The position numbers and the translations under genes are program-made. The notes under the pieces were generated by a model. The model worked only from the letters and a program-made list of their open reading frames with translations. It did not search any database and had not been told where the DNA came from. Below are positions 3 through 49,967 of a stretch of 64,000 nucleotides of DNA, one piece after another. Numbering within the stretch: position 1 is the first letter of the stretch; each line of letters opens with the position of its first letter. The DNA is from a phage, in the sequence record PZ534515.1, one strand, 5' to 3'.

Positions 3-5449
<5,447 letters not shown>

Positions 5450-5451
5450 TA

Positions 5452-6600
5452 ATGGCAGTAGGTGAAATTCAAATTAGTGCCTTGCCTCAAGCAGCCTTAC
5501 CAATTGACCTTAGTGATATCTTCCATCTTAAGCAGGGTATTGAGGATAAGAGATGTACTCTTGAGCAATTACTTGCTCCACACTCAAGCCTAAGAAATAA
5601 CCCTCATGGTGTTACTAAAACACAAATTGGTTTAGATAATGTTATTAATGCTCTTCAGTTAGTTGCTGCAAATAACTTATCAGATATTGTTAATGTAGCT
5701 GAGGCAAGAAAAAATCTACAGATTATGTCTTCAGAAGAGGTTAATAGTCTTATTCAACAGCATATTAATGACAAGAGCAACCCACACAATACAACTAAGG
5801 CGCAGGTTGGTTTAAGTAATGTCCAGAACTGGACAACATCTAACCTTTATAATGAAGATGCAGATAAGTATGCTACAGCAAGAGCAGTAAATAACTTGTA
5901 CAAGGCTGTTCAGGCTTCTTATCCAGTAGGTACTATCCATCTCTCTATGAATCCTGCAAACCCCTCTACATATTTAATTTGTGGAGGTACTTGGGAGTTA
6001 GTCTCAAAAGGGAGAGCACTTGTAGGTTATGATAGTGATTCTAGGCCAGTTGGTTCAACGTTTGGTTCACAGACTACTGCACTGACGGTTAATAACATCC
6101 CTGCACATACCCACTCAGTGTACGTCACTGGTGGTGGTCACACTCATGGTGCAACGGCCTCTATCAGTGCTTTTGATTATGGCACTAAAGGTACTACAAC
6201 GTTTGACTACGGAACCAAGACCGTATCTACTTATGACTATGGCAACAGAACAACAAGTGCTGCTGGCTTAACACAAACAACATTCATTAACCGTGGCTAT
6301 GCTGATGGTGGCTGGAGAGGTTTATCGGTTGAGGGGGCAAGCTATGACCCAAGAGCTACGTTGACAACAGCTAACAACCACACTCACTCTGTAGCAATTG
6401 GTGCGCATAATCATACGGTTGGTATTGGTGCTCACAGTCATACTGTTGCAATTGGTTCCCACAACCACTCAGCAACAGTAACAGTAACCGGAGCAGGTGA
6501 ACATTCTCACTCTGGCACAACTGGTCCAACTGGTTCTGGTCAAGCATTTAGTGTTGAACAGCCATCCTTCGTATTGTATGTATGGCAGAGAACAGCTTAA
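5452..6600 (+). CDS. tail fibre protein with His-x-His repeat tip
   Basis: Repeated TKxQxGLxNV fibre-repeat motifs and C-terminal HTHS/HNHT/HSHT repeats; C-terminus similar to that of the next gene. Confidence 0.65.
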   Translation: MAVGEIQISALPQAALPIDLSDIFHLKQGIEDKRCTLEQLLAPHSSLRNNPHGVTKTQIGLDNVINALQLVAANNLSDIVNVAEARKNLQIMSSEEVNSLIQQHINDKSNPHNTTKAQVGLSNVQNWTTSNLYNEDADKYATARAVNNLYKAVQASYPVGTIHLSMNPANPSTYLICGGTWELVSKGRALVGYDSDSRPVGSTFGSQTTALTVNNIPAHTHSVYVTGGGHTHGATASISAFDYGTKGTTTFDYGTKTVSTYDYGNRTTSAAGLTQTTFINRGYADGGWRGLSVEGASYDPRATLTTANNHTHSVAIGAHNHTVGIGAHSHTVAIGSHNHSATVTVTGAGEHSHSGTTGPTGSGQAFSVEQPSFVLYVWQRTA

Positions 6601-6608
6601 TTTCTTTA

Positions 6609-6630
6609 CAGGGGCTTTATAGCCCCTTTT
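6609..6630 (+). terminator. intrinsic terminator-like hairpin
   Basis: ggggct-ttata-agcccc followed by tttt. Confidence 0.5.
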
Positions 6631-6646
6631 AAGAGGAAAATTTATA

Positions 6647-8995
6647 ATGGCAGATTACAAGTTGAGTGAATTAAACTCAATCGACACAATCCGTTCAGAC
6701 GACCTTCTTCATGTCAGGGTTAAAAAGAGACCTGAAATGTTAGGTGATGAAGACCGTCGAATGACCTATCAAGACTTCTTAGCATCTTTTAAACTTGAGA
6801 GATTTGTTCAGATTGCTGGCAGTACTATGACTGGTGACTTAGGTATTGTTAAGTTACTTTATGGTGGTAAGGCAGTATTTGACCCTACAGACTCTTCTGA
6901 GATTACTATGGGGGATGTTTTAAAGACTTTTAAAATCAATGCAAACGGTCTTAAACTAACTATTGCAGATGCTTCAAGGTCTGCAACTGTTTATCATACT
7001 CTGAATAAGCCAAGCCCTAATGAACTTGGGATGAGAACTAATGAAGAGAATGATGCAAGATATGCAAGACTTGCTGTTACAAACTCATTCCAAGCTAAAC
7101 AGAGTGTCGTAGCAAATGGTGAGCAGTTGACACTGAAGACCCCTGCGGGTGCAAGTGAGGCATACTCCGCTATTGTAGGTCGAAATGCCAATAATGATAA
7201 AACTTGGGCTGTTGGGAATCTAACTCAAGGAAGTCTTGATGTTCATCTCGAAAACAGTAGAGGTTCAAGAATCACTCTAGGTGCAATTGTGTCTGTTAAT
7301 AAGGCTCTCGCTATTACTGGACAGGTTCAACCTTCTGACTTCTCTAACTTAGATGCTAGATACTTCACTCAGACAGCAGCTAATCAGAGATTTGCACAGT
7401 TAACTGCTAATAATACTTTTAGTGGTTTAAATACATTCAGCAACGCTGTTAACATTAACTCTAATGCTGCTGCTATCATGCTGCAAAATAAATCTGCAAA
7501 TGAATCTTTATTCATCCTAGCAAAAGACAGTGAAAATAATAACTTGTGGTATATTGGTCAGGGTAGTGCAAGCTATGGTATCACATTACACGATTACAAG
7601 AACGACACCACGATGGTCTTAGACTCGTCTGGTGCTACATTCAACAAGCCTGTAAAAATCACTGGTCAAGTTCAACCTTCAGATTGGGCTAACATTGATT
7701 CAAGGTATGTTCCGAGTTCTCTGACAAGAGTTCTTGCAAGGACTGATTCAGCTAATACTTTCACTAAAGCACAGATTATCTATGCTGGCAGCGACAACCC
7801 TTTTAGACTACAGACAACGGTACAAGACTCTGGAATCTACATGTCTGCACATAATGCTGATGGGAACAGGAGATGGTGGTTGGGTATTGGTGGTGCTGGT
7901 CAAAACACAGTGGCACTTACCAATGATGTAACAAGAAAGTCAATCAATCTTAGTACTAATTTAGATGTGAATACACATGTGAATATTGTTGGGCAAGTAA
8001 GACCAAGTGATTTCTCTAACTTAGATGCTAGATACTTCACTCAGACAGCAGCTAACTCTAGATTTATGCTTGCTGGTGCAACTGGTGCATACACCTCAAC
8101 AGATTGGAATGCTGTTCCTTGGAACGCTAAATCTGGTCTGTATGACGTTCTTGTTGGTGGTGGTTCACAGATGATTCTGCACCTATATCAAGCACAAGGC
8201 TCATGCCCTTCTGCACAGTTGCGTTTCAACTATAAGAATGGTGGTATGTACTACAGGTCTTCAAGAGACGCATTTGGCTTCGAAGTAGATTGGTCTAAGA
8301 TTTACACAGAGGCTCAGAAACCAACCCCTTCAGAGATTGGTGCATACACTAAAACTGAAACTGACCAGAAGATTGCACAGGCAGTAAGTGACTCTACAGA
8401 CCTTAATAAAATCTATCCAGTGGGTATTGTGACATGGTTTAACAGTAATGTTGACCCTAATACAGCACTGCCTGGTCTAACTTGGACGTATCTGAACAAC
8501 GGTGTTGGTAGAACTATCAGAATTGCAGCAGCAAACGGTTCAGATGTTGCTACAACAGGTGGTTCAGATTCTGTGACGTTAGCTGTTGGTAACTTACCTT
8601 CACACACGCACAGTTTTTCTGCGACTACCTCATCGTTTGACTACGGAACAAAAAACACTAACACGACTGGTGCTCACACACACTCTGTAAGTGGCTCTAC
8701 TTCATCTGCTGGTCACCACAACCACGCTATCTCGTGGATTGGTCAGAACTCTACACACTATTCTGGTGGTGGTGGTGGTAGAATCGGTACAGGTCCGGGT
8801 TACACTGATGGGGGTGGTGACCACACCCACTCTGTAAGTGGTACTGCTGCTTCTGCTGGTAACCATGCTCACAGTGTTGGTATTGGTGCTCACAGCCACA
8901 CAGTAAGTGGTAACACTGGTGGTACAGGTTCTGGTTCAGCATTTAGTGTTACTAACCAATTCTACAAGTTAATGGCTTGGGTGAGAACTGCTTAA
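6647..8995 (+). CDS. large tail fibre protein with internal repeats and His-x-His tip
   Basis: 782 aa; three copies of the QVxPSDxxNxDxRY module; Gly-rich HxH C-terminal region like T4 distal fibre tips. Confidence 0.7.
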   Translation: MADYKLSELNSIDTIRSDDLLHVRVKKRPEMLGDEDRRMTYQDFLASFKLERFVQIAGSTMTGDLGIVKLLYGGKAVFDPTDSSEITMGDVLKTFKINANGLKLTIADASRSATVYHTLNKPSPNELGMRTNEENDARYARLAVTNSFQAKQSVVANGEQLTLKTPAGASEAYSAIVGRNANNDKTWAVGNLTQGSLDVHLENSRGSRITLGAIVSVNKALAITGQVQPSDFSNLDARYFTQTAANQRFAQLTANNTFSGLNTFSNAVNINSNAAAIMLQNKSANESLFILAKDSENNNLWYIGQGSASYGITLHDYKNDTTMVLDSSGATFNKPVKITGQVQPSDWANIDSRYVPSSLTRVLARTDSANTFTKAQIIYAGSDNPFRLQTTVQDSGIYMSAHNADGNRRWWLGIGGAGQNTVALTNDVTRKSINLSTNLDVNTHVNIVGQVRPSDFSNLDARYFTQTAANSRFMLAGATGAYTSTDWNAVPWNAKSGLYDVLVGGGSQMILHLYQAQGSCPSAQLRFNYKNGGMYYRSSRDAFGFEVDWSKIYTEAQKPTPSEIGAYTKTETDQKIAQAVSDSTDLNKIYPVGIVTWFNSNVDPNTALPGLTWTYLNNGVGRTIRIAAANGSDVATTGGSDSVTLAVGNLPSHTHSFSATTSSFDYGTKNTNTTGAHTHSVSGSTSSAGHHNHAISWIGQNSTHYSGGGGGRIGTGPGYTDGGGDHTHSVSGTAASAGNHAHSVGIGAHSHTVSGNTGGTGSGSAFSVTNQFYKLMAWVRTA

Positions 8996-9272: not shown

Positions 9273-9640
9273 AGTGGCTAGAGGAAGCTTTTAAAAATAA
9301 TATTGGTGCAATTGTAGTTGGTATTTTTAGTGTTATTGGGATGTATACCACCATGCAAGTCTCGGATGGTAAGCAAGAAGTGTCTATCACAACAAAGTTA
9401 CAGCAGTTAGATAATTATTCCAAAAGTAATTATTCAGCTATTCGTGATTTACAGTCTGATATGAGGCTGCTTCAGCTAGGGATGGAGAACCAGAAAGTCC
9501 AGTTAGAGAATGTTAAGGGAGAGAACGCAAAACTTACTAAGACTCTTGATAAATTCTCTGATAGTGTGAACAATCTGGCTCAGTCAGTATCAGCCCTCCA
9601 AGCTATTACTGAAAAGAACACAAAGAATACTGAAAAGTAA
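9269..9640 (+). CDS. membrane-anchored coiled-coil protein
   Basis: N-terminal TM-like segment IGAIVVGIFSVIGMY then heptad-rich region; ATGA overlap with upstream ORF. Confidence 0.45.
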   Translation: MKWLEEAFKNNIGAIVVGIFSVIGMYTTMQVSDGKQEVSITTKLQQLDNYSKSNYSAIRDLQSDMRLLQLGMENQKVQLENVKGENAKLTKTLDKFSDSVNNLAQSVSALQAITEKNTKNTEK

Positions 9641-9645
9641 AGTTT

Positions 9646-9676
9646 AAGGCTCCTTCTTACGGGAGCCTTTTTTGTT
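9646..9676. terminator. bidirectional terminator between convergent operons
   Basis: aaggctcc-ttcttacg-ggagcctt followed by tttttg; sits between the + gene ending 9640 and the - gene ending 9677. Confidence 0.6.
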
Positions 9677-10576
9677 TTATTTACCTACTGACAAAGGTGC
9701 TTCAATCTTCCCTGCATGTTGGTAGTTGCTAATACCACCAATAAAGTCACTTGCAGTAAGATGTTTCAGGTCACTTAAAGTATTAAGTTGTAAACCAATC
9801 TCAAAAGTAGGTGCATGGAACTCTTCATTGCTCATCAGTTCATAAACCTGCTTCATATGGTTCTGATAAATCTGAGTATCTCCAAAGACACCTATCAAAT
9901 ATCGTGGAGTGTATCCAGTCATCTTACAAAGAACTTCCAGAATAAAACCATAAGACGCAATGTTAAAGGGAAGTCCTAGAAAGGTGTCTACAGAACGCTG
10001 ATACCATTGCAAATCTACTTCACCCTCGTTAGTGATATAAATCTGAAACAGGACATGACAAGGTGCTAAAGCCATTGAGTTTGCTGCAATATCTGCTGCA
10101 TTCCAAGCATTAACAAGCATGTAACGGTCTGTGATATCACCCTTCATCTTCGTTACTAAAGTCTCTAGCTGGTCTACAACACAACCATTATGACCTTCAA
10201 AGTTTCTCCACTGAACTCCGTAGATTCTTCCACCTGCATCCTCTAACCAATCCTGTTCAGAAGAATAATTAGAGCTTAACCAGCGTTTGAAATCATCTGA
10301 CCAGATAGTCCAGCGTTCTCCGTCATTTTCACCCCAAGTACGGTAACGAAGTTCACCCAGTTTATTCTCACCGTTCAGGAACCATAAAGCTTCTCCAATA
10401 ACTTGCCGTGTAAACACCTGTTTAGATGTTAAGAGTGGGAAACCAGTTCGCATATCAAAACGAAACTGAGGTGGAGCAAATGCAGAAATAACATCCCCAG
10501 TTCGTGTAGTGCGCAGTTCACCAACTGATAAAACATGGTTCAGGATATTTTTGTAACTTGTATCTGCTTGTGACAT
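9677..10576 (-). CDS. thyA: thymidylate synthase
   Basis: Catalytic LAPCH motif, RTGxxxxS and FPLLTSK motifs; sits immediately after DHFR as in T4 frd-td. Confidence 0.85.
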   Translation of the reverse strand: MSQADTSYKNILNHVLSVGELRTTRTGDVISAFAPPQFRFDMRTGFPLLTSKQVFTRQVIGEALWFLNGENKLGELRYRTWGENDGERWTIWSDDFKRWLSSNYSSEQDWLEDAGGRIYGVQWRNFEGHNGCVVDQLETLVTKMKGDITDRYMLVNAWNAADIAANSMALAPCHVLFQIYITNEGEVDLQWYQRSVDTFLGLPFNIASYGFILEVLCKMTGYTPRYLIGVFGDTQIYQNHMKQVYELMSNEEFHAPTFEIGLQLNTLSDLKHLTASDFIGGISNYQHAGKIEAPLSVGK

Positions 10577-10577
10577 A

Positions 10578-11123
10578 TCAAAAGTGTCCTTTTACTTGTG
10601 GAACATAAATTTCAAAAGTTGCTTTACCATCCTCTGATGGTTTTGACTGTACCTTTGTAAATACACGGTTATCATACAACTTCTCAAAGAAGTTTTCAAA
10701 AGGTAAATGCACAGTGACCTCTTCAGTAACTTTATGGAAAACTGTATGGAACACTACACCAGCATACGGTAAAGCATTGACAAGGACACCTGCACCACCA
10801 ATTACAAAGACATCTTCATCAATAGAGCTATCAAGATACTTCAAAAATGCTCCAAATGACTCTTTACTGGCTTTAGCATACATTACATCATCTTTGCCAA
10901 AGTCTATGCCTAAGTATGGTACAGAATTTGTTAAGATGAGGTTTGCACGTTCTGGTAAAGGTTTACTCCCCAGAGTCTTGAAAGTTTCGTTACCCATCAC
11001 TACTAAGTTGTTTTTAGTGAGTCTCTTAAACTCTTGCATGTCCTGTTTATGTCGAGGCCACGGCATACCAGTTGGAGTACCAAACTCACCATTTTCACCA
11101 CTTGCAAAGATTAGTTTAATCAT
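10578..11123 (-). CDS. frd: dihydrofolate reductase
   Basis: DHFR N-terminal pattern (MIKLIFA...GMPW...VVMGNETF...RPLPER.NLILT); stop lies 1 nt before thyA start. Confidence 0.85.
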   Translation of the reverse strand: MIKLIFASGENGEFGTPTGMPWPRHKQDMQEFKRLTKNNLVVMGNETFKTLGSKPLPERANLILTNSVPYLGIDFGKDDVMYAKASKESFGAFLKYLDSSIDEDVFVIGGAGVLVNALPYAGVVFHTVFHKVTEEVTVHLPFENFFEKLYDNRVFTKVQSKPSEDGKATFEIYVPQVKGHF

Positions 11124-11380
11124 TTTGTAAATCCTTTCTTAATGAACCAGTTGATAACATTCCTCACAGCTTTATTGCTATGGTAGATTAAGTGTGGTGT
11201 AGGTTGGTATGAACCATAAGCCCAGAATGATAGATGTTCACCACAACCAACACATGTAGTGCTCTCTTCAGCTATATGACCATTAACAATCATATGAACT
11301 TCACCTTGCAAGTCTGTACACCCACAATGTGGACAACGTATAGGCGTTCCATCAGACTCATAGCAGTGTTCAATTTTCAT
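11120..11380 (-). CDS. small zinc-ribbon protein
   Basis: CPHCGC ... CVGCGEH cysteine pairs; ATGA overlap with frd. Confidence 0.5.
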   Translation of the reverse strand: MKIEHCYESDGTPIRCPHCGCTDLQGEVHMIVNGHIAEESTTCVGCGEHLSFWAYGSYQPTPHLIYHSNKAVRNVINWFIKKGFTK

Positions 11381-11896
11381 CTATTTAACCTCAAAAACTG
11401 GTTCAAGAACCAATATAAAGTCTACACAGTCATCTTCTTCATCCAGAATACCATCAAAGTTCTTAGGAACGAAGTCGAAGAGGCTCATAACAAAACAGTC
11501 AGAAGTAACCCTTATAGTGCCTCCCATATTCTCTACAGTTAATACTGTACGACTCTCTTTTACCTCCCTCAGAAGATTACTCACAAAGTCATCTAAGAAG
11601 TACTTCATCAGTGACTTAAAACCTTTAGGGTAATCTGTACCAGAGTATGTTTCAATCTGAGGAACAAGCTTAACATTTATACTAGTCTTTGTTAAGAATG
11701 TATTAGAGAACATACTATCAGGTAACTTGCAAACAGTCTTTCCAGTACCTTCATGTTCAATCTCAACAAAACCAGCTTCGTCGCCACATGTAACTATTTT
11801 AAAAGATGCTTCATTCTCATACTGTGAAGCCATAAACTTTTTAAGCATCACTTTAAGGAAGTCTGCATGAGCATCTTGTAAGAAGATATCAATCAT
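11381..11896 (-). CDS. hypothetical protein
   Basis: 171 aa ORF in minus-strand operon. Confidence 0.5.
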   Translation of the reverse strand: MIDIFLQDAHADFLKVMLKKFMASQYENEASFKIVTCGDEAGFVEIEHEGTGKTVCKLPDSMFSNTFLTKTSINVKLVPQIETYSGTDYPKGFKSLMKYFLDDFVSNLLREVKESRTVLTVENMGGTIRVTSDCFVMSLFDFVPKNFDGILDEEDDCVDFILVLEPVFEVK

Positions 11897-11909
11897 AGTT
11901 AATCACCTA

Positions 11910-12269
11910 TTATGGGAACAGACACTTAATGTCGTCGTTTTTGAAAACGAAACTTGTGTAATTGTGACCATCAACATCCAGCCAAACAGCCTGAACATCT
12001 ACACCATCAAGGTTGTGGTAAAGCTCTTTGATAAAGTGGTCTTTCACAATCTGACTGCTAGTTGTTTCTAGCTTAATGTTTGAGATTGCTGAACCTACAG
12101 CCATATAACCCATGACACGTTTCTTCTCAGTATGCTTAATCTTGCCATCTTTGTAAGCCATAATGAGATTGGAAAGAATCTTTACACCGTAATACTTTTC
12201 AAGGTGAGTAGGTACACCATAAAAGCCTAGTGCGAAGTTTTCGGAGTGGATAATGTTTTCACGTTTCAT
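11910..12269 (-). CDS. hypothetical protein
   Basis: 119 aa ORF in operon. Confidence 0.5.
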   Translation of the reverse strand: MKRENIIHSENFALGFYGVPTHLEKYYGVKILSNLIMAYKDGKIKHTEKKRVMGYMAVGSAISNIKLETTSSQIVKDHFIKELYHNLDGVDVQAVWLDVDGHNYTSFVFKNDDIKCLFP

Positions 12270-12270
12270 A

Positions 12271-12600
12271 TTAATCTGCCAACCTTAAATTGAAATTAAC
12301 ACCAAATTTTTCGCATACTTCCAACATAAACTCAAGAGAGACATTACCAGTGAGATTGATTATGTTGGATACACGAGCCTGAGAGATACCACAAATTTTA
12401 GCAACTTGCTCTTGAGAAAGACCTCTGGATTTAATCTCTCTCTTAAAACGATGTGCAACGAAGTCTCTCATTTCGTCTACATCCATTGGACAAATATAAC
12501 TCTCCATTTCAGCCTCTCTGTCAGCCTCCCAATCATCTTGTGGAGCATAAGGGTCAAAAACCTCATTCATCTTTCTTCTTCCGTTTGCGTGAAGTGTCAA
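12271..12600 (-). CDS. HTH (XRE-like) DNA-binding protein
   Basis: LSQEQVAKICGISQARVSNI helix-turn-helix signature. Confidence 0.5.
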   Translation of the reverse strand: MTLHANGRRKMNEVFDPYAPQDDWEADREAEMESYICPMDVDEMRDFVAHRFKREIKSRGLSQEQVAKICGISQARVSNIINLTGNVSLEFMLEVCEKFGVNFNLRLAD

Positions 12601-33477: not shown

Positions 33478-35622
33478 ATGAACAAAGTACAAATTATTAA
33501 AAAGAATGGCTCACTTGAAGAACCGGATATCAAAAAAGTTTTAGCAGCAGTCACAAAGTCGGCTAACAGGGTTGGGTATAAAGAACTTCCACCAGATGTT
33601 ACCCAAGCTCTTGAGTCAGCATTTATGAGGATTCTGGTAAAGTCCACTAAGCAGAATAATTTGCTCATCTCAGTAAACGATATTCACAGTATTGTTGAGG
33701 GTGCTTTGGCAGAAGTAAATCACGAGATTTATGAGTCTTACTCAACATATAGAAATTACCGTAAAGAGGTTGCTCAAAATTGGGATGAGCTTTACCAGAA
33801 GACTAAAGACACGCTCTTCTTAGGTGACCGTGAAAATGCTAACTTTGACAGCAGTTTAATTTCTACAAAAGGTTCAATTATTCGTGGTTACCTGACTAAA
33901 GAAATCTTTAAACAGTACCATCTAACACCAGAGGAACTTGAAGCCATTGAAAAAGGGTTTATCTATATCCATGATTTAAGAGACCTGATTTTTGGTGGTA
34001 TCAACTGTTGCCTGTTCGACATTGGTAAAGTACTGAAAGGTGGCTTTGAAATGTCTGGCATCGAATACTGTGAACCAAAGTCTGTGCTGTCAGCCTTACA
34101 GGTTATCGGTGATGTAGTTCTTTCAGCAACTGCACAGCAATTTGGTGGTTTTACTTTAGCAGAGATTGATAAGGTGCTTGTACCATATGCTAAGAAGTCT
34201 CTACGCTATCATGCTGAGAAAGCAGCATCTTACGGTATTCCTAAAGAACATTACCATAACTATGTCATGGAGCAGCTACAGATTGAATTAACTCAAGGCT
34301 TCCAGTCACTAGAGATGAAGCTAAATACTGTACCTTGTAGCCGTGGTGATTTCGCATTCACAACTTTAACATTTGGTTTACTTGACTCAGATATGTCTAA
34401 TGAAGACAACCGACTACAATACATGATTGCAAACACTATTCTTGATGTTCGCATGAATGGACAAGGTAAGAGCAAGAAGCCTGTTGTATTCCCTAAACTG
34501 GTTTATATTCATGACCAGAAGAGACACGATGAGAATATCTGTCAAGGTCAACTGTACAGTAAAGCTATTGAGTGTTGCTCTAAAGCAATGTATCCAGATT
34601 TCTTAAGCGTCTCTGGTCATGGTGCTGTAGCAGAAGCTTTTGAGCGTTCTGGCAAGGTAATTTCACCGATGGGTTGCAGAGCCTTCTTATCTCCATATCT
34701 TAATGAGGATGGGGAAGAGTTCTATGTTGGTCGTGCTAACATTGGTGCTGTATCTTTGAACTTACCAATGATTTACCAGTATTCTAAAGAGAATGGTTTA
34801 GATTTCTGGAAAGAGCTTGATAAGTACCTAGAGATGATTCGCAGCTTCCACAAGAAACGCTACGAAATGATTGCTAACATGCCAGCAAGTTCTAACCCTC
34901 TGGCATTCACACAAGGTGGTCTGTACAAAGGGACTAAGAAACCTACTGACAAGGTTGGTTGGGATATCGTGAAGTCCTTCACAGCTTCTTTTGGGGTTAC
35001 TGCTCTGGATGAGTTGTCTGTTCTTGCTGAGGGTAAACGACTTCATGAAGTTGGAAGCTATAGCTTTGCATACGATGTTCTGGCATACATTAACATGAAA
35101 ACTGAAGAGTTTAAGAATGAAGATGGTTTCTTGTATGCGGTATATGGCACTCCAGCAGAATCACTTTGTGGAACTCAGCTAAAACAGTTCAGAGATATGT
35201 TTGGCGTTATCAAAGGTGTTTCTGACAAGGAATACTTTACAAACAGTTTCCATATGAATGTTGCAGCAGACATCTCACCATTTGAGAAGCAGGACTTAGA
35301 AGAGCCATTCTTCCATATCTGTAGAGGTGGTAGAATCCAGTATGTAAGGGTGGCTAACCCAGAAAACTTACCAGCACTTAAAAGTTGTATTACAAGAGGT
35401 ATGTTGAAAGGTTTTTATCAAGGACTTAACTTTGACTTAGCAATCTGTGAGCATTGTGGTAACAGACCAAAGGCTGATGTTGAAGAATGTGAGGTTTGCC
35501 ATTCACATGATATCTCTGTGATTAACAGGGTGTGTGGGTATCTTGGATGGACTAAGATTAAAGGCGAATCCCGAATGAACGATGCAAAAATCGCTGAGAT
35601 TCGTGATAGAATTTCTATGTAA
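33478..35622 (+). CDS. nrdD: anaerobic ribonucleoside-triphosphate reductase
   Basis: C-terminal zinc ribbon CEHCG...CEVCH and glycyl-radical motif RVCGYLG. Confidence 0.85.
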   Translation: MNKVQIIKKNGSLEEPDIKKVLAAVTKSANRVGYKELPPDVTQALESAFMRILVKSTKQNNLLISVNDIHSIVEGALAEVNHEIYESYSTYRNYRKEVAQNWDELYQKTKDTLFLGDRENANFDSSLISTKGSIIRGYLTKEIFKQYHLTPEELEAIEKGFIYIHDLRDLIFGGINCCLFDIGKVLKGGFEMSGIEYCEPKSVLSALQVIGDVVLSATAQQFGGFTLAEIDKVLVPYAKKSLRYHAEKAASYGIPKEHYHNYVMEQLQIELTQGFQSLEMKLNTVPCSRGDFAFTTLTFGLLDSDMSNEDNRLQYMIANTILDVRMNGQGKSKKPVVFPKLVYIHDQKRHDENICQGQLYSKAIECCSKAMYPDFLSVSGHGAVAEAFERSGKVISPMGCRAFLSPYLNEDGEEFYVGRANIGAVSLNLPMIYQYSKENGLDFWKELDKYLEMIRSFHKKRYEMIANMPASSNPLAFTQGGLYKGTKKPTDKVGWDIVKSFTASFGVTALDELSVLAEGKRLHEVGSYSFAYDVLAYINMKTEEFKNEDGFLYAVYGTPAESLCGTQLKQFRDMFGVIKGVSDKEYFTNSFHMNVAADISPFEKQDLEEPFFHICRGGRIQYVRVANPENLPALKSCITRGMLKGFYQGLNFDLAICEHCGNRPKADVEECEVCHSHDISVINRVCGYLGWTKIKGESRMNDAKIAEIRDRISM

Positions 35623-37469: not shown

Positions 37470-37790
37470 ATGAGCAAAGTTTATAACACTCGTAAATTAC
37501 AGATTTTCGTACTGTGCCAATTTATGGCTAAAGAGTATAACTACTACTACTGCGGTACAGGGTTCATTAGCGATGATGACGGCTCATATCTACCATTCAA
37601 AGAGGCTGTAAAACTCTTCAATGAAGAGGAAAGCTCTAAGAAAGATATTGAAAAGGTTAAGCTAACCTACAGCAAGAAAGATAAGAAGATTATCTGCCTA
37701 GATAACTTTGTAAAAGTTACTGGAGAAGCAAAAGAGTTTATGGATGAGAGTGAAATCTCGTTCACAAGTATCTTGAAAGTAGCTCAGTAA
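37470..37790 (+). CDS. hypothetical protein
   Basis: 106 aa ORF. Confidence 0.45.
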   Translation: MSKVYNTRKLQIFVLCQFMAKEYNYYYCGTGFISDDDGSYLPFKEAVKLFNEEESSKKDIEKVKLTYSKKDKKIICLDNFVKVTGEAKEFMDESEISFTSILKVAQ

Positions 37791-37801
37791 ACAGATACTA
37801 T

Positions 37802-37832
37802 AAGGGGACTGTAAAGGTTCCCTTTTTATTTT
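37802..37832 (+). terminator. terminator-like hairpin
   Basis: aaggg-loop-ccctt then ttttatttt. Confidence 0.4.
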
Positions 37833-37841
37833 GGAGATAAA

Positions 37842-38357
37842 ATGTATCTGTCAAATCTAAAACGTTCGGCTGCAATGTCAGTTCTAAGACTAAGCTTTGA
37901 AGAACGTCAAGAGTTCATTGACTCCCACCAATACGACCCTTCTAACTCAAATCACATGGTTCTCTGGAATCGTGATAGTACTCGTGAAAGAGCACTATTC
38001 CGCTATTATCCACATTACACCATAGACAACCTGTATGAATGTTTTGTTGTTAAGAACACCATTGCAGTGCTCAATAAGCTTTGTAGATACACAGGCAACC
38101 AGTCCTTCACATTAGGTCACCACAAACCTGTTACAAAAGGTGGCGAGCATCATTGTGCAAACTGGTTTATCCAAACTAAATCTGATAATCAGAAGCAGGG
38201 AGATAGCCTTCTAAGCATCCCTAAGATGACCTATGAAGAGCAAGAGAAATATATCAAAAATAATATGCCAGATGTGCTTGACAACAACTATACAGATTTG
38301 GCAATATCTCTCCTGTTGAAGTTTGAGACAGTTTATAGGGCAACTTACAATGGCTAA
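37842..38357 (+). CDS. HNH homing endonuclease
   Basis: GHHKPVTKGGEHHCANWFIQTKSDNQKQGD matches the HNH core. Confidence 0.6.
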   Translation: MYLSNLKRSAAMSVLRLSFEERQEFIDSHQYDPSNSNHMVLWNRDSTRERALFRYYPHYTIDNLYECFVVKNTIAVLNKLCRYTGNQSFTLGHHKPVTKGGEHHCANWFIQTKSDNQKQGDSLLSIPKMTYEEQEKYIKNNMPDVLDNNYTDLAISLLLKFETVYRATYNG

Positions 38358-38641: not shown

Positions 38642-39523
38642 ATGAAAACTATTATTGAAGCCGTTGTCACCGCACAAGAGAAATTCTTCCACACAGAAAA
38701 ATTTAATATCATCCAATTCCCATCTGGAGAAATTGGTGGAAACTTCTCTGAAGACTTTGTTAAGTTTACTGAGCGTAATGCTGGTAAGATTGACAATGTT
38801 ATATTGACTGTACAGGGATATGATAAAGATACACTGTTTGCATTAGCTTTGGCTAAGGATGCCGTTGACAGTCTTGTTCCATACAAATCAGCGATGAAAA
38901 CCGTTGTTTTCGGGTTCTTACCGAATGCTCGATATGACCGCCATATATTCAAAGGTGATTCAGCAGCACTGAAAGCCTTTGCCAACCTCGTTAATGCAAT
39001 GGGTTTTGATGCAGTATGTGCTCTTGACCCTCACAGTAATGTTGCAGAAAACTTATTTAAGTGTTTTCAGAGCATGAAGCAAAAAGATGTAGCAGCACAC
39101 TTTGCAAGTGACCCACGCATTGATTTCTTGGTAGCCCCAGATGCAGGTGCAGCTAAGAAGACTGAAGAGACTGCTAAAGAGGTGGATAAACCATATATCA
39201 CAATGTCTAAAGTACGCAACCTTAAGACTGGTGAAATTACTGGTATGCGAATCCTTGATGCTGTTGATTTGACCGATAAAACTGTCATGATTCTTGATGA
39301 TATTTGTGATGGAGGCCGAACCTTCATAGAAGCAGCTAAACATCTTCGTGAAGCAGGTGCAAAACGTGTGGAACTCTATGTAACTCATGGTATTTTCTCT
39401 AAAGGTGTTGAAAACTTACTTGACAATGGTATTGACCATATCTACACTACAAACTCTTTAGGGGAAGCTAAAGACCGTGGATTAACACATTATGCCCAAG
39501 TTACTGTAGTAACCATTGATTGA
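38642..39523 (+). CDS. prs: ribose-phosphate pyrophosphokinase-like protein (candidate ADP-ribose pyrophosphokinase, NARP1 Adps)
   Basis: PRPP-binding loop VMILDDICDGGRT; ATG at 38642 after agagagagag (track uses TTG at 38621); directly upstream of the NAMPT-like gene. Confidence 0.7.
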   Translation: MKTIIEAVVTAQEKFFHTEKFNIIQFPSGEIGGNFSEDFVKFTERNAGKIDNVILTVQGYDKDTLFALALAKDAVDSLVPYKSAMKTVVFGFLPNARYDRHIFKGDSAALKAFANLVNAMGFDAVCALDPHSNVAENLFKCFQSMKQKDVAAHFASDPRIDFLVAPDAGAAKKTEETAKEVDKPYITMSKVRNLKTGEITGMRILDAVDLTDKTVMILDDICDGGRTFIEAAKHLREAGAKRVELYVTHGIFSKGVENLLDNGIDHIYTTNSLGEAKDRGLTHYAQVTVVTID

Positions 39524-39532
39524 AACTTTATA

Positions 39533-39554
39533 GGGGCTTCAAAGCCCCATTTTG
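39533..39554 (+). terminator. hairpin/attenuator between the prs-like and nadV-like genes
   Basis: ggggctt-ca-aagcccc then attttg; same hairpin recurs at 44655. Confidence 0.45.
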
Positions 39555-39568
39555 AGAGAGATTAAAAG

Positions 39569-41350
39569 ATGACTAAATCACTTTATGCAGTACCAGCAGG
39601 TTTAAATGCAGATGCTTACAAATCTGGTCATGTTTACCAGTACCCTAGTGCAACAGATTACTTGATGTTTAACCTGACACCACGTAGTGATAAATGGTTT
39701 AACAGCCCTTTAGCAATTGATGGTGTAGTAGCTTTTGGTATTCAACGTTTTGTTAAAGATTACTTGATAGACCACTGGAATACCACCTTCTTTGAACGTG
39801 ACAAAAAAGAAGCAATTGATGAAATCTTAGAAGTCATGAACGGTGTTCTGGGTAAAGATGCTATTGGTCGAGAACATTGGGAAGCACTTCACGACTTAGG
39901 TTATCTACCAGTTGAAGTATACGCTGTAGAAGAAGGCACAGTTGTCCCTATGCGTGTTCCAATGATTGTATTCCAGAACACTGTTTCAGGTTTCCATTGG
40001 GTAGCAGGATATCTGGAAGATGCTTTCTCTGCTGAGATTTGGAAGGCTTGTACCATTGCGACTATTGCATTGCACTACAAACGTATCTGTAAGAAGTGGT
40101 CTGACCTTACTTGTGACAATGACTTGCATTTACCTTATCAGTGCCATGACTTTGCTATGCGTGGTATGTCCGGCTTTACCGATGACGCATTTAACGCTGT
40201 AGGTCACTTAACCAGCTTTAAAGGGACTGATAGCTTCCCTGCTGTATATACAGCTAAACGCATCTATGGACAGTCCTACCCAATCTCTGAGATTGGTGGT
40301 TCTGTACCAGCCACTGAACACTCTGTCATGTGTGCAAACATTGCTTGGGAAGGTGGTAATGAATTGATTGAAGAGGAAAGACGCTTTAGAGGTGAGTTGC
40401 AAACCTTCCGTCGTTTCTTAACAGAAACTTACCCAACTGGTATTGTAAGTATTGTTTCAGATACTTATAATTTCTGGAGAACTGTATCAGTGATACTACC
40501 AGAACTCCGTAAAGAGATTATGGAACGTGATGGCAAACTGGTAATTCGTCCTGACTCTGGCGACCCTGTACATATTGTCACAGGTTATAAAGCAATCCAC
40601 TTAGAGTGTGCTAAAAAGGCTTATTACGAACACCTAAGCAAGCTGGAAGCCAGCGACACAATGTTGAATGCTGTTCTGAACATGAAGCTTGAAAACATCA
40701 ACTACGGCATTGCTGGGTGGCTACTGTCAGAAGGTTACGAAATGGTTGTTGACAGAGAAGACTTTGAAGTTGCCGATACAGTGATGTTGAAAAATGCTTA
40801 TATGGTTGGTTCTGCAAACGTTGTAACACGTCCTGTAGCAGAGATTGATGGAGCTATCAAGACACTGTATAACATCTTTGGGGGAACTATCAACTCTAAA
40901 GGTTTTAAAGTACTGGATGAGCACATCGGACTTATTTATGGTGACTCTATCACGTTGGAACGTGCAAACGAAATCTTGAAGCGTTTGTATGAAATGGGTT
41001 TTGCAAGCTCTAACGTGGTGTTTGGTGTAGGTTCTTACACTTACCAGTACATGACTCGTGACACTTTTGCATTTGCTGTCAAAGCAACTCTTGCAAGCAT
41101 TGGTGGTAAAGAGATTATGCTTGCAAAAGACCCTAAAACAGATAGTGGTGTTAAGAAGTCTGCTTTTGGTGGTGTAGCACCTATGTGGGATGGTGATAAG
41201 CTGAAAGCTGTAGATGGCTATGGATTCCAGAGCTTTGCAGATGTGCTTGAACATCCAGCTTGTGCTTTACGTTTAGTCTTTAGTGACTCTGAGCAGTTCG
41301 GTTACACATCTCTTGGTGATATTCGAAATAATATTGACAAGCAACTTTAA
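39569..41350 (+). CDS. nadV: nicotinamide phosphoribosyltransferase-like protein (candidate NARP1 Namat)
   Basis: 593 aa; NAMPT-like N-terminus (DAYKSGH); paired with the prs-like gene. Confidence 0.75.
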   Translation: MTKSLYAVPAGLNADAYKSGHVYQYPSATDYLMFNLTPRSDKWFNSPLAIDGVVAFGIQRFVKDYLIDHWNTTFFERDKKEAIDEILEVMNGVLGKDAIGREHWEALHDLGYLPVEVYAVEEGTVVPMRVPMIVFQNTVSGFHWVAGYLEDAFSAEIWKACTIATIALHYKRICKKWSDLTCDNDLHLPYQCHDFAMRGMSGFTDDAFNAVGHLTSFKGTDSFPAVYTAKRIYGQSYPISEIGGSVPATEHSVMCANIAWEGGNELIEEERRFRGELQTFRRFLTETYPTGIVSIVSDTYNFWRTVSVILPELRKEIMERDGKLVIRPDSGDPVHIVTGYKAIHLECAKKAYYEHLSKLEASDTMLNAVLNMKLENINYGIAGWLLSEGYEMVVDREDFEVADTVMLKNAYMVGSANVVTRPVAEIDGAIKTLYNIFGGTINSKGFKVLDEHIGLIYGDSITLERANEILKRLYEMGFASSNVVFGVGSYTYQYMTRDTFAFAVKATLASIGGKEIMLAKDPKTDSGVKKSAFGGVAPMWDGDKLKAVDGYGFQSFADVLEHPACALRLVFSDSEQFGYTSLGDIRNNIDKQL

Positions 41351-41363
41351 AAGTATATGATAA

Positions 41364-41387
41364 GAGGCTCCTATGGGAGCCTTTTTA
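41364..41387 (+). terminator. intrinsic terminator
   Basis: aggctcc-tat-gggagcct then ttttt. Confidence 0.6.
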
Positions 41388-41403
41388 ATTTCTGGAGAAT
41401 GCT

Positions 41404-41748
41404 ATGGACAACCTTTCCATATGGTTTAACAAGAAACCTGTACAACCGAAATACTTACAAGTTGCCTATACAGACATCCTTGAAGTTCTCGGTAAAGAAA
41501 AGTTTGAAAAGTTTTGTGAAGGCATCTACAATCATCACTGCCAATTTGCTACAAAAGAAGGTATGTTTGTCATAGAACAGTTCTTTGGCAGAGACCCAGA
41601 TGACTACGAAGAGATTAGCTTTGTAATGAAATACATGATAGAGTATATTGAAAATCGTGGATTCGAAGTTAATCCTGAATTTTATGAGCACGAGGGTGTA
41701 CCTTTAGCAAAAGGTTTTGATGGAATACTTGTTAGCTGGACTTGGTGA
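41404..41748 (+). CDS. hypothetical protein
   Basis: 114 aa ORF. Confidence 0.45.
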   Translation: MDNLSIWFNKKPVQPKYLQVAYTDILEVLGKEKFEKFCEGIYNHHCQFATKEGMFVIEQFFGRDPDDYEEISFVMKYMIEYIENRGFEVNPEFYEHEGVPLAKGFDGILVSWTW

Positions 41749-49181: not shown

Positions 49182-49967
49182 ATGGGTATTGTAAAAATCA
49201 TCAATGGGGATATCTTCTCCGCATTTGATAAAGGTAAGTTTGATATCATTGGTCACGGTTGCAACTGTATGAACTTAATGGGTGCGGGTATCGCTGACAA
49301 GATTTCTAAACTTTACCCAAAAGCATATGAGACCGATACAGAAGTTTATCTGTATACAGGTGGTATAGGCCACAAACCCTGTGAAAATTTACTAGGCAAC
49401 TTCTCTGTAGCACGTTTAAAACAAGGCCGTATAGCTAACCTTTACACTCAGCTTCACACTGGTAAAGATGCCAGATACAGTGCTTTAGAGTCATCTCTGA
49501 AACAGCTTAACAGATACTGTGAAGTTAATCAGTTGAAGAAAGTTGGTTTACCTATGATTGGTGCAGGTATCGGTGGACTTGACCCTCAAGCCGTCACCGT
49601 TATCATTAATCAGGTGATGAAGAGTGTAGATGTCTATCTATATGTCTACGAAGGAGAGATGTACCACAAGTTACGCTCAGGTTGGAAGAACTACTGTGAA
49701 CCAGAATACTTTGCAGGTGTAGTAGTGTTCACAGATAACACAGTTACCCTCTTCAGACGAAGAAAAGGTAAGGTACATCAAAGTAACCCTCCGGTTGAAA
49801 AGATGTCTCTAAGTAACGCTCTAGTTACCCACCTGTCGAAGAGCAATCACAGAATTGCAGTAACATTTGGCAGTGATGCAGATACATATATCTATGCAAG
49901 AAATGATGAGGATGTTGAGGAAATTTTCTCTTCACCGGAAGTTACCTTCTTAGACGCAAAGAACTAA
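49182..49967 (+). CDS. macro-domain protein (ADP-ribose binding/hydrolase)
   Basis: N-terminal IINGDIF...GHGCNCMNLMGAGIA matches the macro-domain Gly-rich ADP-ribose-binding region. Confidence 0.65.
   Translation: MGIVKIINGDIFSAFDKGKFDIIGHGCNCMNLMGAGIADKISKLYPKAYETDTEVYLYTGGIGHKPCENLLGNFSVARLKQGRIANLYTQLHTGKDARYSALESSLKQLNRYCEVNQLKKVGLPMIGAGIGGLDPQAVTVIINQVMKSVDVYLYVYEGEMYHKLRSGWKNYCEPEYFAGVVVFTDNTVTLFRRRKGKVHQSNPPVEKMSLSNALVTHLSKSNHRIAVTFGSDADTYIYARNDEDVEEIFSSPEVTFLDAKN

Follow-up and report, generated by a model that had tools for sequence, protein, structure and literature searches.

Gene layout and genus of the locus

We examined a 64,000-nt stretch of a phage genome (sequence record PZ534515.1; hereafter the window), focusing on a pair of adjacent plus-strand genes that very probably make up a NAD+ reconstitution pathway 1 (NARP1) operon. 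A first-pass annotation of the same DNA, made from the sequence alone, had described two co-oriented open reading frames (ORFs) of 293 and 593 aa separated by a hairpin. Both ORFs were recovered exactly, at 38642..39523 and 39569..41350, with a gap of 45 nt, and the hairpin was confirmed within this spacer at 39533..39553, with a conserved stem. The first gene, adps, is an ATG ORF nested inside a 300-aa TTG ORF of the ORF list, and its family and ortholog matches point to an ADP-ribose pyrophosphokinase (ADPR-PP synthetase) of the Prs superfamily. The second, namat, also opens with ATG and is predicted by the same kinds of match to encode nicotinamide ADP-ribose transferase, an enzyme of the NAMPT fold. 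A Shine-Dalgarno-like GAGAGAG run lies 5′ of each ORF.

The phage was assigned to Felixounavirus by megablast of the gene pair and by synteny over 24 kb. The megablast returned 254 phage records, nearly all of them Felixounavirus phages of Escherichia, Salmonella, Shigella, and Citrobacter, with at least 80% of the query covered in 209 records. The top match was Salmonella phage NJ12 (96.7%), and many records were 96–97% identical to the window at the DNA level. The 24 kb around the pair, which run through nrdA/B, nrdD/G, the adps-namat pair, and rIIA/rIIB, were likewise syntenic with many Felixounaviruses at 95–96% identity. Because the megablast records and the syntenic stretch carry the pair, adps-namat is, on these genome comparisons, a near-universal feature of the genus.

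Orthology to the Bas63 operon

NARP1 was discovered in the Felixounavirus Bas63, in which “operon 79-80” was deleted (Osterman et al., bioRxiv 10.1101/2024.02.11.579819). We therefore compared the window with the Bas63 genome (JohannRWettstein, MZ501086). The Bas63 genes bas63_0079 and bas63_0080 encode proteins of the same lengths, 293 and 593 aa, in the same order, and their spacer has the same 45 nt with a hairpin. Both window proteins aligned to their Bas63 counterparts without gaps, with 279 of 293 residues identical for Adps (95%) and 578 of 593 for Namat (97%), and the DNA was 97% identical over 2.86 kb, flanks included. The two loci also share their flanking genes, nrdG upstream and rIIA downstream, and their catalytic and clamp residues are identical. 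What separates them is 14 conservative substitutions in Adps and 15 in Namat, none at a known functional residue, and a single base in the hairpin loop. Substitution counting against Bas63 gave dN/dS values of 0.105 for adps (dS 0.23, dN 0.024) and 0.042 for namat (dS 0.26, dN 0.011), and from these low ratios we conclude that purifying selection on adps and namat alike is strong.

The Bas63 operon has been studied in infected cells. Its deletion left ~20-fold fewer plaques on cells carrying SIR2-HerA, and hosts mutated in both pncC and nadR still showed the effect (bioRxiv 10.1101/2024.02.11.579819). Wild-type Bas63 restored NAD+, ADPR-PP was seen only when wild-type phage and defence were combined, and no excess NAD+ was made where the defence system was absent (bioRxiv 10.1101/2024.02.11.579819). 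In vitro, SPbetaL1 Adps was active on ADP-ribose (ADPR) and not on ribose-5-phosphate, and SPbetaL1 Namat preferred ADPR-PP over phosphoribosyl pyrophosphate (PRPP); among Adps-clade genes, 97% adjoin a Namat gene (bioRxiv 10.1101/2024.02.11.579819). The NARP1 enzymes with reported in vitro activity are the homologues from SPbetaL1, DyoEdafos, and P. foliorum, whereas the Bas63 evidence comes entirely from in vivo work. The NARP1 paper of Osterman et al. was reportedly published in Nature in 2024.

The first protein belongs to the Adps clade

Database matches alone place the adps product among the Prs enzymes: it matched PHROG 619, “ribose-phosphate pyrophosphokinase” (E 2e-97), and the Pfam families Pribosyltran and Pribosyl_synth. 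Among the NCBIfam models, it passed solely the broad subfamily TIGR01251 (133 bits against a cut-off of 113). All ten Prs equivalog or PRK-specific models scored far below cut-off (such as 109 bits where 296 were required and 95 where 297 were), with shortfalls of 200–470 bits at the Prs equivalog cut-offs. In pairwise comparisons, as distinct from a full phylogeny, the protein scored 125 bits (37.5% identity) against Adps of the Gary-like Vibrio phage Chazly21 and 92 bits against SPbetaL1 Adps, compared with 63 bits against Escherichia coli Prs. The Chazly21 Adps-Macro-Namat operon is of the Gary type, which was validated in the preprint on aRES (bioRxiv 10.64898/2026.01.28.702374).

The residues expected of an active enzyme are also in place. 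The catalytic lysine is K190, equivalent to K162 of SPbetaL1 and K192 of Gary, the residues that were mutated to inactivate Adps of SPbetaL1 (bioRxiv 10.1101/2024.02.11.579819) and of Gary (bioRxiv 10.64898/2026.01.28.702374). The PRPP-type phosphoribosyltransferase loop noted at first pass, VMILDDICDGGRT, was located at aa 215–227 (39284..39322, plus strand), where its counterparts in the alignment are DDMIDTGGT in E. coli Prs and DDLSSFGGT in SPbetaL1 Adps, and a flexible loop of the form K-x-R-N/D-x-x-T/S-G-x-I is common to all aligned Adps sequences. On the strength of the bit scores (125 and 92 against 63) and the retained catalytic lysine, the first protein is classed as a member of the Adps clade, more similar to validated Adps enzymes than to Prs of E. 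coli. Like the other aligned Adps sequences, it stops ~20–25 residues short of the E. coli Prs C-terminus. The C-terminal segment of class I Prs contributes to the allosteric/regulatory site, and the shorter Adps proteins would then have lost the allosteric region of Prs. A search of the PDB found no Adps structure.

Clamp residues identify the second protein as Namat

The namat product matched PHROG 448 (E 3e-201) and Pfam NAPRTase (E 3e-34), and scored 24 bits against NAMPT_N, just below the cut-off of 25. A sequence search of the PDB gave SPbetaL1 Namat (9w5x/9w5w) as the best match at E 1.4e-127, with Haemophilus ducreyi NadV (9ke8, a complex with nicotinamide mononucleotide [NMN]) ranked just after the Namat entries and human NAMPT at E 1e-41. 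The NAMPT-like fold proposed at first pass was borne out by an AlphaFold2 model built with 38 homologues (pLDDT 93.5, pTM 0.91), the closest PDB structures being Namat and NAMPT; the best fold match was again 9w5x, with a target-normalised TM score of 0.95. Identity to SPbetaL1 Namat was 48%, compared with 31% to the KVP40-type Nampt of NAD+ reconstitution pathway 2 (NARP2).

As NadV ranks second in the PDB search, the clamp motif was needed to tell Namat from Nampt. That distinction was defined in a 2026 structural study of SPbetaL1 Namat, in which the catalytic core is conserved (PMC12774641). The alignment places the selectivity-clamp helix (SCH) at aa 488–498 of the window Namat (41030..41062, plus strand), with the sequence GSYTYQYMTRD and the aromatics Y490 and Y494. 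The SCH of SPbetaL1 Namat reads GSFTYQYNTRD, and the equivalent segments are GGGLLQQLDRD in KVP40-type Nampt, GGALLQKVDRD in Xanthomonas Nampt, and GAQTYQRNTRD in H. ducreyi NadV. The clamp-free segment of Nampt type (GGxLLQxxxRD) was not found in the window Namat, which has GSYTYQYMTRD instead. In the selectivity-clamp loop (SCL), residues K42-W43 (39692..39697, plus strand) align to SPbetaL1 R40 and are identical to those of Bas63. With Lys at the third SCL position, the residue that follows stacks on the adenine, as in Bas63 (PMC12774641), and K42-W43 fits the adenine-stacking pattern of the SCL, namely, Arg at position 3 or else Lys/Tyr followed by a stacking residue.

Further residues agree with this assignment. 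All NAD+-contact residues of the crystal structure are conserved or conservatively replaced in the window Namat and identical to those of Bas63, and the NAMPT-type catalytic core is conserved (D15, Y17, F195, R198, D221, H251, R327, D329, G458, and D459). H251 corresponds, by motif rather than by direct alignment, to Gary H243, which was mutated in the aRES preprint. The protein also passed the NCBIfam equivalog NF006629, “nicotinate phosphoribosyltransferase” (467 bits against 405), a model that evidently captures Namat as well and is therefore non-discriminating. Overall, the comparisons support the second protein being Namat and not Nampt. The first-pass annotation had left both Adps versus Prs and Namat versus NAMPT undecided, and alignment settles the pair as Adps and Namat.

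The window Namat carries two insertions. The larger is a lineage-variable segment of ~88 aa (aa 340–427; 40586..40849, plus strand) that the alignment places immediately C-terminal to the RPDSGDP active-site strand, and the second, of ~15 aa (~aa 257–271, ~40337..40381), follows catalytic His251. The ~88-aa insertion is confidently modelled as a small alpha/beta unit by AlphaFold2; it is absent from KVP40-type Nampt, and Felixounavirus Namat exceeds the crystallised protein in length by ~100 aa. At the same site, insertions of 32–91 aa occur in unrelated lineages of Namat, namely, those of Coenus, phi92-like phages, Kuttervirus, and Listeria P100-like phages. A Pfam scan of the insertion gave nothing above noise, and it is not mentioned in the structural study (PMC12774641).

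Proposed function of the pair and alternative explanations

Taking the evidence together, we consider the pair to be the NARP1 operon of Felixounavirus, orthologous to Bas63 genes 79 and 80, with a probability of about 0.93. This reading holds because of the 95% and 97% gapless orthology to a validated operon, together with the Namat clamp and the catalytic residues. The first-pass proposal of a NARP1 counter-defence module, as opposed to ordinary PRPP/NAD salvage, is likewise supported by the Bas63 orthology and the clamp motif. The pair is already known, in that the Felixounavirus lineage is the published type example of NARP1.

We infer that the enzymes of this phage behave as those of Bas63 and SPbetaL1. 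The trigger would be a host NAD+-depleting defence (SIR2-HerA/Nezha, DSR1/2, type I Thoeris, or SEFIR) that splits NAD+ to ADP-ribose and nicotinamide. Adps would then transfer a pyrophosphoryl group from ATP to position 1″ of ADP-ribose, yielding ADPR-PP, and Namat would exchange the pyrophosphate for nicotinamide, yielding NAD+ directly. Namat is expected to act as a NAMPT-fold dimer with an adenine clamp at the entrance of the active site, formed by the K42-W43 loop and by Y490 and Y494 of the GSYTYQYMTRD helix. Such a pathway would be independent of the host NMN adenylyltransferase and would become active only upon ADPR accumulation. By analogy with Bas63 on SIR2-HerA cells, the pair in this phage should relieve NAD+-depleting defence. 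It would in this way let a virulent enterobacterial phage survive abortive-infection defences based on SIR2, TIR, and SEFIR NADases by a strategy in which the damage is repaired and the defence protein is not blocked, a feature relevant to phage-therapy host range. The value of the present analysis lies in correct annotation: public records name the two products “ribose-phosphate pyrophosphokinase” and “nicotinate/nicotinamide phosphoribosyltransferase,” and automated annotation through NF006629 will keep mislabelling NARP1.

Several points weigh against this interpretation. The Bas63 proteins “did not purify well” and so lack in vitro characterisation (bioRxiv 10.1101/2024.02.11.579819); the substrate specificity of the Felixounavirus-type enzymes is accordingly argued from in vivo metabolomics and from homology. 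Identity to the characterised SPbetaL1 enzymes is just 31–33% for Adps and 48% for Namat, and both Namat insertions are absent from the crystallised SPbetaL1 protein. SPbetaL1 Namat keeps PRPP-to-NMN activity in vitro (PMC12774641; bioRxiv 10.1101/2024.02.11.579819), and some ordinary salvage flux is possible. The match of the window Namat to NF006629 counts here too, within the limits of a non-discriminating model.

In the salvage explanation, a true PRPP synthetase and a true nicotinamide phosphoribosyltransferase would make NMN, to be finished via host NadR/PncC-dependent routes. The database names and the Pfam and NCBIfam matches do read Prs and NAPRTase/NAMPT, the TIGR01251 and NF006629 cut-offs are both passed, and SPbetaL1 Namat does form NMN from PRPP. 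We nevertheless regard salvage as highly improbable, given that Bas63 overcomes SIR2-HerA in the pncC nadR double mutant and produces ADPR-PP, that SPbetaL1 Adps yields no product from ribose-5-phosphate, that the window Adps misses every Prs equivalog cut-off and is without the C-terminal segment of Prs, and that Namat has the adenine-clamp aromatics missing in true Nampts. Membership of the second protein in the NAMPT superfamily would also suit NARP2 of the kind seen in Vibrio phage KVP40, where a PRPP-using Nampt is paired with an Nmnat encoded by the phage. That pathway is scarcely credible here: Namat is closer to its SPbetaL1 counterpart than to KVP40-type Nampt, the SCH motif differs, the partner gene is a Prs homologue and not Nmnat, and no phage with both pathways was found (bioRxiv 10.1101/2024.02.11.579819). 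Moreover, Pfam detected no Nmnat, nucleotidyltransferase, or Nudix domain in the neighbours of the pair or in ~33 of 43 window ORFs of at least 150 aa, a scan that spans ~64 kb of an ~87-kb genome and takes in only some of the shorter ORFs. The same scan did match thymidylate synthase, dihydrofolate reductase, an ATP-dependent ligase, a deoxynucleoside monophosphate kinase, ribonucleotide reductase subunits, a GIY-YIG endonuclease, and lysozyme.

A housekeeping function, in which ADP-ribose from any source is recycled to sustain NAD+ during infection whether or not a defence is present, draws on bacterial homologues and on the discovery paper itself, which raised such a role in bacteria (bioRxiv 10.1101/2024.02.11.579819). 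Close homologues are found on the chromosomes of Klebsiella michiganensis, Cronobacter, Kosakonia, and their relatives, as 496-aa proteins with the Namat motif GSFTYQYNTRD. In K. michiganensis (DAHJTQ010000013.1, positions 4211..7491 of the locus, L013), the 496-aa Namat-motif protein is preceded by an Adps-like protein of 289 aa that shares 46% identity with the window Adps. This pair is divergent from an NrtR-type regulator (Nudix and WHD_NrtR domains) and lies between crp/prkB and kefB/slyD, in a chromosomal, non-prophage context. NrtR is an ADP-ribose-responsive repressor of NAD genes, and the arrangement suggests that the Klebsiella pair may be an ADPR-inducible housekeeping NARP1. ADPR-responsive transcription and housekeeping NARP1 are hinted at, and no more, in the earlier work (bioRxiv 10.1101/2024.02.11.579819), and in the collection of papers searched, none was found to mention NrtR alongside NARP1, Namat, or Adps. 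For the phage operon, a housekeeping role is improbable, since in Bas63 ADPR-PP and the NAD+ benefit appear solely with a defence present, no excess NAD+ is made otherwise, and deleting the operon affects plating only in the presence of a defence, reportedly leaving fitness and NAD+ intact on defence-free hosts.

Comparison with other NAD+ restoration systems

The NARP1 operon in the window can also be set beside other systems. SPbetaL1 NARP1 has the same two-gene order, the Adps catalytic lysine, the Namat catalytic core, and the GS-aromatic-x-Y-x-aromatic-x-TRD helix, but its genes overlap and have no spacer hairpin, and its SCL carries R40 where the window has K42-W43. KVP40 NARP2 also employs a NAMPT-fold enzyme for phage NAD+ restoration; unlike the window pair, it uses PRPP, needs Nmnat, and has neither an Adps partner nor the adenine clamp. 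The cellular Prs and NadV/Nampt enzymes (E. coli, H. ducreyi, Xanthomonas, and human) belong to the same two superfamilies and carry out the same chemistry, pyrophosphoryl transfer to ribose C1 and displacement by nicotinamide, whereas the ribose substrate of NARP1 bears an ADP moiety. Cellular Nampts have G/Q/L where Namat has the clamp aromatics, and Adps differs from Prs in lacking its C-terminal segment and in having the K-x-R-N/D-x-x-T-G-x-I flexible loop.

Extended operons are known as well: NARP1-AP and a RyDEP-extended NARP1, with a RyR-domain cyclic ADP-ribose glycosidase in the operon, were described in 2026 preprints. Gary NARP1-AP (Adps-Adpp-Namat) shares with the window a homologous core of Adps and Namat and the presence of an Adpp-family Macro protein in the same phage. 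In Gary the Macro gene is inside the operon, whereas that of the window is distal and its product has ~100 aa of extra C-terminal region. Pfam found no Macro-domain gene in the four ORFs upstream and three ORFs downstream of the pair, and no RyR-domain (PF02026) gene among its neighbouring ORFs at E values up to 1. By gene content, the operon is the minimal two-gene NARP1, neither NARP1-AP nor the RyDEP-extended form.

A distal Macro-domain gene as a candidate accessory

The Macro gene, which we treat as a candidate accessory gene and not as an established part of the pathway, encodes a 261-aa protein at 49182..49967 on the same (plus) strand, ~7.8 kb and ~14 genes downstream of namat. The domain was identified by Pfam (PF01661, E 8e-8, 32.6 bits against a cut-off of 22) and is N-terminal; the C-terminal 105 aa gave nothing above noise in Pfam. 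The protein is the orthologue of bas63_0095, “putative phosphatase” (96.6% identity), and matched PHROG 335, “phosphatase,” at E 3e-113. Compared with five Macro proteins from the NARP1-AP operons of the aRES preprint, it was 27–36% identical (E 4e-13 to 2e-20), Gary Adpp being matched at E 4e-13; a sixth, from Vibrio phage RYC, was weaker (E 2e-6). Gary Adpp is a demonstrated ADPR-1″-phosphate phosphatase, in which H24A and N27A were made (bioRxiv 10.64898/2026.01.28.702374), and both residues are kept in the window protein, as H25 and N28. The Macro family profile matches TARG1, DarG, and Poa1p structures.

These similarities raise the idea of a dispersed NARP1-AP, in which the Macro protein would remove the phosphate from ADPR-1″-phosphate, the product of RES-type NAD+ phosphorylases (aRES), and supply the resulting ADPR to Adps and Namat. 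We hold this only tentatively and think it unlikely on the sequence comparisons at hand. A T4-like protein, Tk.4, is equally similar (34% identity, E 2e-22, in a local comparison), and the Macro family occurs in ~2,850 phage records. T4-like phages are not known to carry NARP1. A DarG/TARG1-like de-ADP-ribosylase role would be an equally good guess for the Macro protein.

Nonetheless, the Macro gene is the sole lead here that goes beyond the literature. The published criterion for NARP1-AP is a Macro gene within two genes of NARP1, and Table S1 of that study lists no Escherichia or Salmonella phage (bioRxiv 10.64898/2026.01.28.702374). The phages assayed on aRES were lambda-vir, SECphi4/17/18/27, T2, T4, T5, and T7, a panel with no Felixounavirus (bioRxiv 10.64898/2026.01.28.702374). 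If the idea were true, Felixounaviruses would resist aRES though uncounted under the “within two genes” criterion. The phi92-like and Kuttervirus lineages, which combine NARP1 with a distal Macro gene, might be dispersed NARP1-AP too, and if such Macro proteins function with NARP1, the published figure of 15% for NARP1-AP would be an underestimate.

Neighbouring genes

Three further genes around the operon were noted. At 37842..38357 (plus strand), two genes 5′ of adps and within the terminator-flanked block that also holds adps, lies a 171-aa ORF of PHROG 3500, whose product has a weak HNH-like core (GHHKP...GGEHH...NWF) and matches PHROG 2214 at E 9e-5. In Erwinia phage Coenus, where identity to the window Namat is only 46%, the same position holds a homologue of this protein with 53% identity. 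This 170-aa Coenus gene, two genes 5′ of Adps, was considered as a Macro protein and rejected, as it has no similarity to the window Macro protein.

On the other side, directly 3′ of namat, a 114-aa ORF (41404..41748, plus strand) belongs to PHROG 20372 (function unknown) and is the orthologue of bas63_0081. The bas63_0081 homologue is missing from this position in AYO145A and SUSP2, where the next gene is a homologue of bas63_0082, and from this comparison the slot right after the NARP1 terminator is variable. Farther upstream, nrdD is a single 714-aa ORF (33478..35622, plus strand); in Bas63 (positions 9530..12416 of locus L003) it consists of two joined pieces split by a homing-endonuclease gene (bas63_0067/0068), and the window phage appears to be without this intron and endonuclease.

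The intergenic hairpin and flanking promoter-terminator elements

The hairpin between adps and namat has the sequence GGGGCTT-CAA-AGCCCC (39533..39548, plus strand) and is followed by ATTTT. Its fold energy is –11.5 to –12.6 kcal/mol (z = –2.15 versus shuffles). Four Ounavirinae phages, among them Bas63, AYO145A, and the more distant Suspvirus SUSP2, have an identical stem, with variation in the loop and at neighbouring wobble positions. The AYO145A record annotates the hairpin as a rho-independent terminator. A simple terminator scan did not pass it, on account of its short T-run. The hairpin may be a weak terminator or attenuator into namat, or an RNA-stability element, and in these roles it would tune the Adps:Namat ratio or stabilise the transcript.

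The unit ends in a compact element at 41334..41390 (plus strand), found by motif scan, in which a promoter-like TTGACA-N16-TATGAT covers the last namat codons and abuts the intrinsic terminator GAGGCTCC-TAT-GGGAGCC plus TTTTT. The terminator hairpin spans 41362..41385 and is followed by T5. This promoter-terminator copy is conserved in Bas63, AYO145A, and SUSP2, and its promoter is annotated in AYO145A. A second intrinsic terminator is found at 37802..37824, 5′ of the two small genes that precede adps.

The two sites are copies of one layout (37773..37841 and 41334..41403), each with a sigma-70-like promoter, an abutting GC-rich hairpin with a T-run, GGAGA, and ATG. The upstream copy has the promoter TTGAAA-N17-TACTAT, and the downstream copy is the TTGACA-N16-TATGAT element just described. 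A transcript initiated after the –10 box would begin within the hairpin, and an element of this kind could stop upstream transcription while restarting it.

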